From positions 896,001-960,000 of the forward strand of contig OZ240215.1 of the NCBI GenBank assembly GCA_965197585.1: 64,000 bases of DNA, read 5' to 3'. The translations under genes were made by a program, and so were the position numbers. This stretch comes from Dehalococcoidia bacterium (GTDB taxonomy: Bacteria > Chloroflexota > Dehalococcoidia > Plut-88900). Below the pieces are notes generated by a model. The model made no database searches. It had not been told where the DNA came from and worked only from the letters and a program-made list of their open reading frames with translations. Positions within the stretch are counted from its first letter, which is position 1; every line of letters begins with the position of its first letter. Shown in pieces: positions 24,199 to 29,452 of the stretch.

Positions 24199-26595
24199 TT
24201 GATCATACTTCTCCGGCTATACAAGCTCTTTCCCAAGGGCAACACCTTAAGCCTGCTAATCATCGGCCTGCTCGTCATTGCAGCCCTGGTGGTCCTGGTC
24301 CCGAACAAGACGCCCGGCCTTGACAGGGAGGGATTCCGGCAAGGGCTGGACATCAAGGGCGGCACCCACCTCGTCTACGAGGCTATCCCCCCTGAGGGAG
24401 AAGTCGTCACCGATTCCCAGATGGAGGGAGTCATAAGCATAATCCGGCGCCGGGTAGACGCGTTCGGGGTGTCGGAGCCCATCGTACAGAGAGTCGGGGA
24501 CGACCGTATCATGGTGCAGATCCCCGGCATCAAGGACGTGGAACAAGCCAAGAGTCTCATTGGCAAGACGGCCCAGCTTGATTTCCGGGAGCAGAGACGC
24601 AAGGAAGACGGCACATTCGTTACCGATCCCACTACTGGCAGTATCATCTGGGACCCGGCCCTCACGACAAACGATACCGGCCAATTGGCGCCTGTCACGG
24701 GTGAATTCCTGCTCCCGACCTCCCAGGTATTGCTTGACCCGAGCACCAACCTTCCCCAAGTCGCCTTCGAGTTCAATGACGAAGGCGCCAGGATGTTCGA
24801 GAGGGTTACGAGCAGGCTGCTCAACCAGCCCCTGGGGATACATCTTGACGGGGACCTCATCTCTTCCCCGACAGTGCAAGCCGTCATATCGAGAAACGGT
24901 GTAATTACGGGGCTCTCTCTAGACGAAGCAGACGTCTTGGCCATTCAGCTAAACGCGGGCGCCCTTCCCATTCCCATCCAGACGATACGCGAGCAGGACG
25001 TTGATGCAACGCTGGGCGCGGAATCGGTGAGCAAGAGCCTGGTAGCGGGGGTGGTGGGTTTGCTTCTCGTCCTCGGGTTCCTGATGTTCTACTACAGGCT
25101 GCCTGGTGTCCTCTCCGCAGGCGCACTCATAATCTACGGGATGGTGGTGCTGTCGACGTTCAAGCTGCTTCCCGTGACCCTTACGCTCTCGGGCATCGCC
25201 GGCTTCATCTTGTCCATCGGCATGGCGGTCGACGCCAACGTCCTTATATTCGAAAGACTGAAAGAGGAATTACGAGCGGGTCGAAGTCTGAGGGTAGGCA
25301 TTGAGGCGGGGTTCAACCGGGCCTGGGTGGCCATCCGTGACAGCAATGTCTCGACACTGATCACCTGCGCCATATTGTGGTGGTTCGGGAACAAGCTGGG
25401 GACACCGCTGGTAACCGGCTTTGCGATCACGCTGGCCATCGGCGTGGTAACAAGCATGTTCTCGGCGATGTTCGTGACCAGGAGTTTCCTCAGGTTCGTC
25501 GTCGGGGCCCGGGTGCAGGAGAAGCCTGGGTTATTCGGACTGGGCAAGGCCGGGGCTCAGGCGGTCGAGGCTTCAACCCCTCGGCGTGGGCTGAACCTGG
25601 TCAACAAGCGGGTCTGGTACTTCGTTATCTCGGGGGCGGTCCTGTTACCGGGCATCGTCTCCCTGATCTTCCCTCCGGCCTTCAACACGGGCATCGAGTT
25701 CTCCAGTGGCTCGACCATTGAGGTTCGGTTCATAAACCCCTCCGACCTGTCGAGACTCACGACCGGTGCGGTTACGTCTCAGGCCGTGCGGGAGGTGCTG
25801 GACGAGCTGGGGCACGGCGACGCGATAGTTCAAGCCCTGGAGGCCAATGCGTTCCTCATCCGTACCGAGACGCTGGGGCAGGGTGAGATCGACCAGGACG
25901 GGAACGTGGGCCCCTCGGACAGCCAGCTTATTCAGCAGGCATTCGCACAGCGCTTTGGGGGGACGAGTATAGACCGCTTCGAGGTCGACTTCGTGTCTCC
26001 GATAGTAGCCGCTGAGATGGTGCGTAACGCGGCGCTGGCAGTGCTGTTCGCAATAATCGGCATTTTCTTATACATAGCGTGGGCATTTCGTAAGATGCCC
26101 CATTTCTTCCGATATAGCCTATCGGCGGTATTTGCCCTGTCCCACGACGTCCTGATAGTACTGGGCCTCTTCTCGATCATGGGGAAGGTGTTCGGGATTG
26201 AGCTGAATACAATGGTGATCACAGCCATCCTGGCAGTGATCGGTTACAGCATTAACAACACCATCGTAGTCTTCGACCGCATCAGGGAGAACATGCTCAA
26301 GCGGACGGGCGAGCGGTTCGAAGTCACCGTGAACAACAGCCTGCTGGAGACGATGGGTCGATCGCTGAACACCAGCCTGACAACGCTGTTCACGCTGATG
26401 GCCCTGGCCCTCTTTGGCGGGAGTACGCTGCTGCCGTTCATCCTGGTACTGCTCATCGGCGTGATTGCCGGAACGTACAGTTCCATGCTGATAGGCCCGC
26501 AGATTCTGGTGATGTGGGAGAACCGGGAGTTCGGCGTGATACTGCGCCGTGTCCAGGCCCGGCTCGGCGGAGCCCGAGCCCGCACCCCCACTTAG
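24199..26595 (+). CDS. secDF: Fused protein translocase subunit SecDF
   Basis: GLDIKGG, LNAGALP, SIGMAVDANVLIFER, DSNVST (SecD) then GIEFSSG, SHDV, IGYSINNTIVVFDRIRE, GTYSS (SecF). Confidence 0.95.
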   Translation: MIILLRLYKLFPKGNTLSLLIIGLLVIAALVVLVPNKTPGLDREGFRQGLDIKGGTHLVYEAIPPEGEVVTDSQMEGVISIIRRRVDAFGVSEPIVQRVGDDRIMVQIPGIKDVEQAKSLIGKTAQLDFREQRRKEDGTFVTDPTTGSIIWDPALTTNDTGQLAPVTGEFLLPTSQVLLDPSTNLPQVAFEFNDEGARMFERVTSRLLNQPLGIHLDGDLISSPTVQAVISRNGVITGLSLDEADVLAIQLNAGALPIPIQTIREQDVDATLGAESVSKSLVAGVVGLLLVLGFLMFYYRLPGVLSAGALIIYGMVVLSTFKLLPVTLTLSGIAGFILSIGMAVDANVLIFERLKEELRAGRSLRVGIEAGFNRAWVAIRDSNVSTLITCAILWWFGNKLGTPLVTGFAITLAIGVVTSMFSAMFVTRSFLRFVVGARVQEKPGLFGLGKAGAQAVEASTPRRGLNLVNKRVWYFVISGAVLLPGIVSLIFPPAFNTGIEFSSGSTIEVRFINPSDLSRLTTGAVTSQAVREVLDELGHGDAIVQALEANAFLIRTETLGQGEIDQDGNVGPSDSQLIQQAFAQRFGGTSIDRFEVDFVSPIVAAEMVRNAALAVLFAIIGIFLYIAWAFRKMPHFFRYSLSAVFALSHDVLIVLGLFSIMGKVFGIELNTMVITAILAVIGYSINNTIVVFDRIRENMLKRTGERFEVTVNNSLLETMGRSLNTSLTTLFTLMALALFGGSTLLPFILVLLIGVIAGTYSSMLIGPQILVMWENREFGVILRRVQARLGGARARTPT

Positions 26596-26723
26596 CTCCT
26601 GGACCTTGGGCGTAGGCCCCAAACGCCATCTTTTCCTTGACACCGGATACCCCTGAATATACCCTCACGTTAGGGAACTGGAAGGCCCGTAGCCCCCAAG
26701 TAGAGACAGCGAAGGAAGGGATA

Positions 26724-27593
26724 ATGAGAGACAAACTCGTAACCCTGGAACAGGCCGCCAACCTGGTACGTACCGGCGACAAAGTGATCATGATGGGGGG
26801 CCTGGACTACACCCCAATGGCGCTATTGAGGGAGATAGTCAGGGGCGGGACGACTGACCTGAACACTCTCGGTGTGGTGGGAGCGTCACTGAATCTCGAC
26901 TTCCTGGTCGGGGCGGGTCGGACGGCCACCGTGGAGACCTGCGATTTCAACTTCCAGCCCTTCGCCAGGGTCGCGCCCAACTACCTGCGCCTCCAGAAGC
27001 AGGGCCGCATCAAGATGAAAGACAACACCTGAGGCGTGCTCTATAGCATGGTCCAGGCTGGATCAATGGGCATCCCCTTCGTCCCGACCCTCGGCTACGC
27101 AGGCAGTGACGTAATTAGGGAAAGAGACGACTTCACCATGGCCCCCAACCCCTTCGACCCGTCAGAGACGGTGGTGATGGCCAAGGCTATCACTCCCGAC
27201 GTCGCATTGTTCCACGGAAGCAAGGGTGACAGCCGAGGCAACGTGCTGGTCAGCAAAGGCGGGGAAGCCTTGATGCTGGCGCAGGCGTCGGACAAGGTGG
27301 TAGTGACGGTTGAGGAGATCGTGGATTCGGTCTCGCAGAACGATCCAACGGGGACTTTCATTCCTGCAATCCACGTCAAGGCTGTGGCCCACGCGCCTTT
27401 CGGGGCCTACCCCAGCGCGTGCCCGGGCTTCTATGGCATGGACGTGGAGGAGATGAAGAAGTACCTGGACGCTTCCACTTCCGACGAGACCTTTGAAGGT
27501 TACCTGGCCGATGAGGTATACGCCTTCCACGACCACGAGGACTACTGCCGGTCTCGGGGCCTGGGGGTTCGGGTGCCTGCAGCGGTGGGGTAG
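26724..27593 (+). CDS. Class I CoA-transferase-fold alpha subunit with in-frame UGA (27030-27032), probable selenocysteine
   Basis: ORFs 26637-27032 and 27036-27593 share one frame, separated only by TGA: ...KMKDNT*GVLYSMVQAGSMGIPFVP...PDVALFHG..GDSRGN...VVVTVEEIV; hairpin follows the TGA. Confidence 0.8.
27036..27073 (+). promoter_or_regulatory. Candidate bacterial SECIS hairpin
   Basis: Upper stem CATGGTCCA/TGGATC(A)ATG with GGC loop at 27056-27058 (~23 nt after UGA); lower stem GTGCTC/GGGCAT. Confidence 0.55.
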
Positions 27594-28345
27594 TGTCTCA
27601 ACCGCCTAACTGCACGTTCGAAGAGTTCATGGCCGTCCTCCTGTCGCGGGAGGTGCATGATTGGGAGACCTCGGCCTGCGGTGCACTGTCCTTCATACCT
27701 GCCTCCGCACTCCTTCTGGCCGAAGCGTCCCACGCCCCGAACGGCGAATTCATAGTCCTGGACAGCGACTACTACAACCCGTTCGTCGGGGGGAAGGACT
27801 TCCACTACCTCGCCCAGAGGGGAAAGCTCGACCTGTTCTTCATGAGCGGGATCGAGATAGACCGGGAGGCCAACTTCAACCTGCACCTCATCGGAGACCC
27901 CGATTCGCCAGAGGTCAGGATGCCGGGTCAATACGGAACGGGGCTCCTCTACTATGCCGTGCCCCGCATAGTGCTCTTCCGCACCCGCCACGATAAGCGG
28001 ACATTCGTTGAGAAAGTGGACTATGTCTCGGCGGCTTCCTCTTCGCCGGAGGGCTTTGTCCGCCGTACAAAGGAAGTGGGGGTAATAACTCCGCTGGCAA
28101 AGATGGAGCTATCGAGGGAGTCGGGTATATTGGAGTTGGTCTCTGTGCACCAGGGGCACACGCTTGAAGAGGTGAGAGAGAACACGGGCTTCGAGCTGAA
28201 GATTAAGGACGGCGGCGAGACTGCGCCGATGACTCCGATTATTTCTGATGAGGAGCTTCACCTGCTCCGTACAGACGTCAAGGCCCGAATGATCGAAACC
28301 AACACCTACCCCCACGACGCCCGGGCCAATATACGCGAAGCGTAA
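27593..28345 (+). CDS. Class I CoA-transferase-fold beta subunit
   Basis: LDLFFMSGIEIDREANFNL, VRMPG..G, HDKRTFVEKVDYVS, ITPLA, SVHQG..LEEVRENTGFEL; start overlaps the alpha stop. Confidence 0.88.
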   Translation: MSQPPNCTFEEFMAVLLSREVHDWETSACGALSFIPASALLLAEASHAPNGEFIVLDSDYYNPFVGGKDFHYLAQRGKLDLFFMSGIEIDREANFNLHLIGDPDSPEVRMPGQYGTGLLYYAVPRIVLFRTRHDKRTFVEKVDYVSAASSSPEGFVRRTKEVGVITPLAKMELSRESGILELVSVHQGHTLEEVRENTGFELKIKDGGETAPMTPIISDEELHLLRTDVKARMIETNTYPHDARANIREA

Positions 28346-28390
28346 ACCCGAAGCCTTCCCCCGCTAAACAGCGCAAAGGGCGTTTCCAGA

Positions 28391-29452
28391 CTATTGGGAA
28401 GTGCGCTTGATGCGGGCCACACTGCGGATTCGGTCCTCGGCGAGACGGTCTGCGGCGGAGGCGGTGGTGATGCCCTCCGCCTTGGCCCGATCGAAGATAT
28501 CCAGAAGAGTGTCGTAGACCTTGGCGGTCCGGTCCATGGCCGCATCCCTGCTCTTACCCTCAACCTCACAGGCCACGGTTATTACACCGCCGGCGTTTAT
28601 GGCGTAGTCGGGTGCATAGAGGATGCCGGCTTCGGCGAGGGCCTCTGCGTGGCGAGGGTCCTTGAGTTGGTTGTTGGCGGCCCCTGCCACTATTGGCGCC
28701 TTGATCTGGGGAATGGTGTCGTCGTTTAGGACGGCGCCCAGGGCGCAGGGAGAGAAGATATCGCATTCGACGGCATGTATCTCTTCCGGCGCGACTATGG
28801 AAGCCCCGAGTGCAACCGCCTCAGCAATTCTGGACTCGTTGATGTCGGCGGCGATGACCCGGGCGCCATCTTCCCGCAGGTGTCGAGCGTAGTTGTAAGC
28901 GACCTTCCCGAAACCTTGGATGGCGACGGTCTTACCGTTCAGGGAGTCGGAGCCCGTGAGCTCCTTCATGCAGGCGCGAGCCCCTTGGTAGATTCCGAAC
29001 CCGGTAATCACCTCTGCCCCGCCCAGTCCGCCGTGGGACTCGGGGAGACCGGCAGCGTAGCGGGTCTCCTTGCGCATGTGGACAACATCCTGGTTCACGA
29101 CGCCGACGTCCTCAGTAGTGATGAAACGGCCCCCCAGGGTGTCGACGAAACGGCCGTGGGCGCGGAATAGGGACTCGGATTTGTCGGTGTTGGAGTCGGC
29201 GATGATGACGGCCTTGCCGCCCCCGTAGTCGAGACCGGCCAGCGATGACTTGTAAGTCATTGCCCTTGCGAGGCGCAACACGTCCAGGATTGCCTCTTCC
29301 TCGGTGGCGAAGGGCCACATGCGGGTGCCCCCGCAGGCAGGCCCGAGCGTCGTGTCGTGAATGCAAATGAGAGCCCTGAGACTGGCAGCCTCATCGGTGT
29401 AAAGGGCCAGCTCCTCGTACCCGTACTGCTCCATGTAATCGAAGATTTTCAT
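28391..29452 (-). CDS. Glu/Leu/Phe/Val dehydrogenase (leucine dehydrogenase-like)
   Basis: IHDTTLGPACGGTR, MTYKSS, GGGKAVI, TEDVG, IQGFGKV, PCALG, GAANNQL, PDYAINAGG. Confidence 0.93.
   Translation of the reverse strand: MKIFDYMEQYGYEELALYTDEAASLRALICIHDTTLGPACGGTRMWPFATEEEAILDVLRLARAMTYKSSLAGLDYGGGKAVIIADSNTDKSESLFRAHGRFVDTLGGRFITTEDVGVVNQDVVHMRKETRYAAGLPESHGGLGGAEVITGFGIYQGARACMKELTGSDSLNGKTVAIQGFGKVAYNYARHLREDGARVIAADINESRIAEAVALGASIVAPEEIHAVECDIFSPCALGAVLNDDTIPQIKAPIVAGAANNQLKDPRHAEALAEAGILYAPDYAINAGGVITVACEVEGKSRDAAMDRTAKVYDTLLDIFDRAKAEGITTASAADRLAEDRIRSVARIKRTSQ

Follow-up and report, generated by a model that had tools for sequence, protein, structure and literature searches.

A putative selenoprotein with a CoA-transferase fold encoded by a two-gene locus of a Dehalococcoidia bacterium

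Background

Does the TGA at positions 27030-27032 of a 64,000-nucleotide stretch of Dehalococcoidia DNA (hereafter the window) terminate a gene or is it read through and, if so, what kind of enzyme is made? A preliminary description of this locus, drawn from the letters alone, had interpreted it as a selenocysteine (Sec)-containing enzyme of the CoA-transferase fold. This interpretation is supported by every computational test that the description had proposed. We give a probability of roughly 85% to the reading of the locus as a whole, Sec decoding being almost certain, a catalytic Sec103 likely, and an enzyme other than a transferase somewhat more likely than not. On sequence evidence, positions 26724-27593 very probably form one gene in which UGA is decoded as selenocysteine. 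The resulting 289-aa alpha subunit, with Sec103, would pair with the translationally coupled beta subunit, and the resulting enzyme, with its family-I CoA-transferase fold, would belong to the GctAB/AibAB/IpdAB branch.

One reading frame across the TGA

The open reading frames 26637/26724..27032 and 27036..27593 share one frame of the plus strand, and their sole break is the TGA at 27030-27032. Read through, the alpha subunit gene (26724-27593, +) has 289 codons, with Sec at codon 103 and a TAG stop at 27591-27593, and its product is 289 aa long. Pfam family PF01144 (CoA_trans) gives a single match to alpha residues 8-223 (E 8e-16), which therefore crosses the TGA. A purine-rich stretch, GAAGGAAGG (26711-26719, +), lies 4 nt 5' of the alpha start codon and is the putative ribosome-binding site. 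The second half of the gene has only a GAGG 1 nt 5' of GTG 27036 and no well-spaced ribosome-binding site. The beta subunit gene (27593-28345, +; 250 aa) starts with a GTG that shares 1 nt with the alpha TAG. Thus the layout given in the preliminary description, namely two same-frame ORFs separated by a single TGA and adding up to an alpha subunit of about 289 aa, a second half without a convincing ribosome-binding site, and an intact, translationally coupled beta gene, is borne out by the ORF map, the spanning Pfam match and the 1-nt overlap.

Among NCBIfam models we found none specific for the alpha subunit; the best match, TIGR02429, scores 30.7 bits against a cut-off of 128.5. Our promoter scan returned no candidate, and the terminator scan a single antisense terminator-like site, fewer than expected by chance. 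Rfam gave no match over 26500-28500 except a chance hit to NrsZ (E 0.78).

Fold of the alpha subunit and the site of Sec103

The AF2 model of the alpha subunit has a pLDDT of 93.5 and a pTM of 0.91. Residue 103 is the first of a helix (103-114) directly following a strand (97-100). Foldseek matched the model to GctA (1POI, query TM 0.86), AibA (5MZW, 0.79) and IpdA (6CON, 0.86; 6COJ, 0.84), with a range of 0.78-0.86 over all matches to these three proteins. The fold and the alpha/beta pairing are thus those of family-I CoA-transferases. GctAB, the glutaconate CoA-transferase of Acidaminococcus fermentans, provides the best alpha match in both sequence and fold (E 4e-35, TM 0.86). In sequence alignments, Sec103 faces a Gln in GctA and a Gly in AibA.

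IpdAB, the hydrolase that cleaves a ring of COCHEA-CoA in Rhodococcus jostii and Mycobacterium tuberculosis (6CO6, 6CO9, 6COJ, 6CON), has the same fold (query TM 0.84-0.86), also consists of separate alpha and beta subunits, and has its special residue on alpha in the same column, at the site of the E105A mutant. Sec103 aligns with the single position that differs between 6co6_A (Glu) and 6coj_A (Ala), and the title of PDB entry 6COJ is "IpdAB E105A COCHEA-CoA complex", which places Sec103 at the Glu105 site of IpdA. We take Glu105 to be the catalytic base of IpdA. However, the column holds Sec in the window protein, and Sec or Cys in its family, in place of the Glu of IpdA, and sequence identity is only 24-25%.

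We found no universally conserved second Cys: alpha C73 is present in 42 of 52 sequences and beta C29 in 36 of 51. The pair therefore has no classical UxxC redox motif.

The beta subunit and the catalytic-Glu column

In true family-I CoA-transferases, the catalytic Glu resides on beta (Glu54 of GCT), and IpdAB, which has no such Glu, does not transfer CoA, according to the accessible text of PMC5380842. AibA/AibB, the 3-methylglutaconyl-CoA decarboxylase of Myxococcus xanthus (5MZW), likewise has the CoA-transferase fold with the beta Glu replaced, by Cys56 of AibB, and is not a transferase, as far as the accessible text of PMC7756340 goes. We located this beta column with the help of a canonical homologue, whose Glu aligns both with E-S-G of 1poi_B and with the residue at which the AibB mutant entries differ.

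We then compared alpha and beta columns in 93 pairs (loci L025-L124), one of which is uninformative owing to a truncated alpha. Alpha subunits with His or Asn at the Sec column are always accompanied by a beta Glu (11 of 11). With Glu in alpha, the beta column holds Gly (16 pairs) or a gap (2). With Sec in alpha, beta has no residue there in 51 of 51 pairs, the column falling in an alignment gap. No beta Glu accompanies alpha subunits with Cys (seven pairs) or Gly (five). None of the 51 Sec-form beta subunits therefore carries the Glu of the E-S/A-G motif (Glu54 of GctB), which in GctAB is catalytic and coexists with the Gln of GctA at the Sec column. The window beta subunit resembles the IpdAB beta subunit in having no transferase Glu (for IpdAB, again from the accessible part of PMC5380842). 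Its gapped column is flanked by hydrophobic residues (Leu or Ile), and nearby Asp residues are not conserved beyond the genus. Although its best PDB sequence match is AibB (46.7 bits), it differs from AibA/AibB: the latter combines Cys56 in beta (Cys56B) with a Gly in alpha, while here nothing is conserved at the gapped beta column and alpha has Sec.

The residue at the alpha Sec column, taken with the beta-Glu column, appears to offer a simple rule for separating transferases from non-transferases. His or Asn in alpha combined with Glu in beta is consistent with true transferases, Glu in alpha corresponds to IpdAB, and Gly, Cys and Sec make up further classes.

A nucleophile on the acyl-CoA?

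Since beta has no residue at the catalytic-Glu column, the sequence comparison suggests that the enzyme is, on balance, something other than a CoA-transferase. The CoA-transferase identity given in the preliminary description is thus upheld for the fold and the subunit pair, and probably fails for the function. Sec103, replaced by Cys in some relatives, is likely to be the catalytic residue, judging from its alignment with the site mutated in IpdAB E105A. As a residue that caps a helix and is exchangeable for Cys, its simplest role would be that of a nucleophile on acyl-CoA; most likely, its selenolate would attack the acyl part of the bound substrate. The enzyme could then be a lyase, hydrolase or isomerase whose substrate is an unsaturated or beta-keto thioester. 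More tentatively, at a little under even odds, we may be dealing with a new mechanistic class of the CoA-transferase superfamily, in which an alpha Sec serves as the catalytic nucleophile on acyl-CoA and forms a covalent intermediate (Se-C or Se-acyl).

The alternative that survives best retains Sec and makes the enzyme a CoA-transferase after all (or a thioesterase or acyltransferase). Sec103 would then stand in for the beta Glu as carrier, bound to the acyl group as a selenoester (Se-acyl) or to CoA by a Se-S bond. In keeping with this, the fold and the arrangement in two subunits match those of GctAB and SCOT, and the Gln that GctA holds at the Sec column lies within the active-site region. 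In single lineages, an ADP-forming acyl-CoA synthetase or a pyridine-nucleotide disulfide oxidoreductase is also encoded nearby. However, no neighbour is conserved, known transferase chemistry requires a carboxylate, and the characterised relatives without the beta Glu, IpdAB and AibAB, are not transferases (accessible texts of PMC5380842 and PMC7756340). We thus regard a Sec-dependent transferase as unlikely, and retain the reading of a non-transferase with a catalytic Sec103.

The TGA column among homologues

All of the above supposes that the UGA is read. Were it a true stop, the locus would produce two polypeptides, of 102 and about 185 aa, or be a pseudogene. Two facts speak for this: GTG 27036 is a conceivable start codon, and in 62 of 120 database entries gene callers have annotated only the C-terminal 175-186 aa.

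A first scan covered 61 genomes, the window's own and 60 relatives. The alpha homologue of 16 relatives, ranging from 100% down to 34% identity, has a single in-frame TGA, in the same alignment column (codon 99-103) in all 16. A second scan, querying one genome per prokaryote species with the closer homologue alignment, returned 80 loci. Thirty-six have TGA at the Sec column and come, according to the titles of their records, from Dehalococcoidia, SAR202, Burkholderiales, Betaproteobacteria, deltaproteobacterial MAGs, Thermodesulfobacteriota, Binatia and Tectomicrobia. The remaining 44 carry Glu (19), Cys (10), His (6), Gly (5) or Asn (3), or are cut by a contig end (1). Among 80 metagenome loci, the column is TGA in 69, Asn in 9 and Cys in 2; the two Cys codons, TGT and TGC, were verified (L153 and L182). 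A few loci are duplicated between collections, the 52 genome-derived 48-nt segments comprising 48 distinct ones. Neither TAA nor TAG was seen at the column: in all 52 genome loci and 69 metagenome loci with a stop, this stop is TGA, which argues against a true stop.

The residues that replace the TGA argue in the same direction. Cys occupies the column in 11 of 100 loci and in 15 of the 120 database homologues, including the closest full-length ones (52-43% identity). In the close family, the aligned column is thus Sec (TGA) or Cys, and not Trp or Arg. The preliminary description had placed this Cys in a KD.TCP motif, which is broadly correct: the closest Cys homologues read D-N-T-C-G, and a C-P variant occurs in a sister subclade. 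In a separate Cys class (L078, L082, L088, L090 and L117), a Cys doublet fills the column (C-C-N or C-C-Y). Its members come from Methanomassiliicoccales and a single Methylococcaceae MAG, and the tree places them away from the Sec clade.

The short database entries may be viewed in this light. The 62 that lack the first half are fragments of 169-210 aa starting past the Sec column. Public databases mostly show the gene shortened to 175-186 aa (62 of 120 homologue clusters), under the name "hypothetical protein" or "glutaconate CoA-transferase subunit A". Dozens of public clusters of 169-186 aa, within P0002-P0067, are miscalled second halves of the alpha selenoprotein gene.

A hairpin downstream of the UGA

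A G-first-loop hairpin about 23 nt past the UGA had been pointed out from the letters, and we recovered it with exactly this spacing to the first loop G. The apical helix of this putative SECIS has 7 bp (27049-27065, +), with a 5' arm at 27049-27055, a GGC loop at 27056-27058 and a 3' arm at 27059-27065, and lies 17-33 nt past the UGA. Its folding energy is not above that of shuffled sequence (z +0.49, equalled or bettered by 142 of 200 shuffles), and the case for the hairpin rests on conservation.

In 52 TGA-form sequences (48 distinct), 94.9% of the cells of the 7-bp helix are paired. Three pairs vary on both sides (UA to AU, GC or CG; GU to AU or CG; UA to CG), and the covariation score was reached by none of 500 shuffles. 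Sliding the helix partner by 1-3 columns lowers pairing to 18-45%. Because the helix lies in the codons of a conserved Q-A-G peptide, non-TGA homologues were taken as controls. In the same register, TGA forms keep 6.61 of the 7 pairs in genome loci (n=36) and 6.90 in metagenome loci (n=69), compared with 3.1 in Cys forms (n=10), 2.74 in Glu forms (n=19) and 2.4-4.2 in non-TGA forms overall. The only controls with the M-V-Q-A-G peptide itself are two Cys forms, which encode it with different synonymous codons and form 4 of 7 pairs. As the loop and upper stem fall within the Q-A-G codons, part of the conservation of the hairpin reflects protein constraint.

The stem-loop 3' of the UGA is thus conserved, covarying and specific to TGA forms, as a SECIS should be, and its specificity is a further argument against a true stop. 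The apical helix is the only firmly supported part of the hairpin. We also considered a lower SECIS helix at constant positions (columns 4-11 pairing with 38-45) and rejected it, since it is only 62% paired in a single register.

Sec machinery, selection and genetic code

The preliminary description had made the presence of sel genes a check on the Sec reading. The source genome contains matches to selA (542.7 bits), selB (369.6 bits) and selD (385.4 bits), together with a tRNA typed Sec with anticodon TCA (tRNA-Sec(UCA)). The release factor gene prfB is present as well (470 bits). Among the relatives, selA accompanies the TGA form in 16 of 16 genomes versus 43 of 61 genomes overall, a co-occurrence that lends weak support since the TGA-form relatives are kin. 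It is also found in four of four TGA-form genomes of other phyla. The ribosome would then read the UGA at 27030-27032 as Sec with the help of tRNA-Sec, SelB and the hairpin described above. The selD match itself (G000:C1:3357253-3358176, -; locus L013) contains one in-frame TGA, so that SelD of the source genome is probably a selenoprotein too.

Both halves of the alpha gene are under purifying selection: comparisons within the genus give a dN/dS of 0.018-0.087 upstream of the UGA (codons 1-102) and 0.063-0.117 downstream of it (codons 104-289), hence at most 0.12 on either side. A sequencing error, also raised at the outset, is not indicated by the contigs examined. A 298-nt contig from a public run covers 26990-27287 and reproduces the TGA region without any difference, although the best-matching run is possibly the sample of the window's own assembly. 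Two contigs from RNA libraries also bridge the TGA, one of 2417 nt covering 26600-27756 with 83 differences, the other covering 26973-27142; neither is proof of transcription. Among the best-supported 40 of 269 differences, none changes 27030-27032.

The low dN/dS on both sides completes the case against a true stop, which also has to contend with the relatives that carry Cys at the column, with a break placed at a helix start inside one domain and with a second half that has no spaced ribosome-binding site. We consider two polypeptides or a pseudogene very improbable. The Sec reading draws on the conserved TGA, the Cys homologues, the covarying hairpin, the Sec machinery and the purifying selection on both halves.

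Insertion of a standard amino acid at the UGA, through a changed code (Trp or Gly) or a Sec-like tRNA carrying Cys, is just as improbable: tRNA-Cys species resembling tRNA-Sec have been described in some bacteria and TGA is rare as a stop in the window (4 of 29 long ORFs), but prfB is present, long ORFs are intact under table 11, the same TGA is found in Burkholderiales and other phyla, and the genome has a TCA-anticodon tRNA typed Sec along with selA and selD. On stop usage itself, the 29 non-overlapping ORFs of at least 300 aa in the window end with TAG (18), TAA (7) or TGA (4); TGA stops are unusually rare for a genome of 59% G+C that nonetheless has prfB.

Phylogeny and gene context

We placed 96 alpha subunits in a quick maximum-likelihood tree, several branches of which are long. 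In it, 49 Sec forms share one side of a branch (SH-aLRT 98) with a single Cys form (L069). A further ten Cys forms, mostly from archaea and Anaerolineae, sit apart, and the IpdAB-like Glu forms are found on the opposite side of the tree from the Sec forms.

The neighbours of the pair in the window are housekeeping genes, according to the 11 Pfam-scanned ORFs (minimum length 200 aa) that lie from 15.8 to 34.4 kb. This is another difference from IpdAB, as no steroid-catabolic neighbourhood surrounds the pair in this interval. A convergent Glu/Leu-type dehydrogenase gene lies downstream of the pair, and genes for PriA, peptide deformylase and a tRNA synthetase, among others, are nearby. Directly upstream, a single 798-aa ORF (24199-26595, +) encodes a SecD-SecF fusion. 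Antisense ORFs from a crude ORF caller were left out of the neighbour lists, and across lineages we found no conserved gene neighbour of the alpha/beta pair. Gene context therefore points to no substrate. In seven loci of two clades (L036, L039, L051, L054, L084, L085 and L087), the pair is adjoined by a gene for an IMPDH/NMO-like FMN protein of about 395 aa; a 60%-identical homologue is encoded in the source genome (G000:C1:2930523-2931635), about 2 Mb from the pair.

A probable selenoprotein family outside the classical redox folds

The window gene shares with known bacterial selenoprotein genes, such as those for FdhA and SelD, an in-frame UGA, a hairpin just downstream, Cys homologues and a genome with the selA/B/C/D system. 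However, its product has neither a thioredoxin-like fold nor a UxxC/CxxU motif. The preliminary description had placed it outside the classical redox selenoprotein families, and the searchable parts of the catalogues agree. In the accessible portion of a 2026 review of 119 selenoprotein families and subfamilies, PF01144 does not appear, and CoA comes up only for CoA-disulfide reductase, HgcA and a crotonase-like DsbA form. No CoA-transferase-fold selenoprotein was found in the available text of deep-Sep (2025), of a 2022 review, of the GOS (2008) and Olavius (2007) surveys or of a 2021 deltaproteobacterial study. Searches of the full-text literature for a selenoprotein paired with a CoA-transferase were also negative, although supplementary tables may list one. 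From these partially accessible sources, we thus consider it likely that this is a widespread selenoprotein family new to the catalogues.

If new, it would bring a widespread family into a catalogue in which thioredoxin-like redox proteins predominate. If the proposed reading is true, the enzyme would be among the very few selenoenzymes outside the classical redox folds, with a distribution over at least five bacterial phyla. It also poses a question of chemistry, namely why selenium should be used in an enzyme of CoA thioesters, for which the natural Cys relatives offer ready comparisons.
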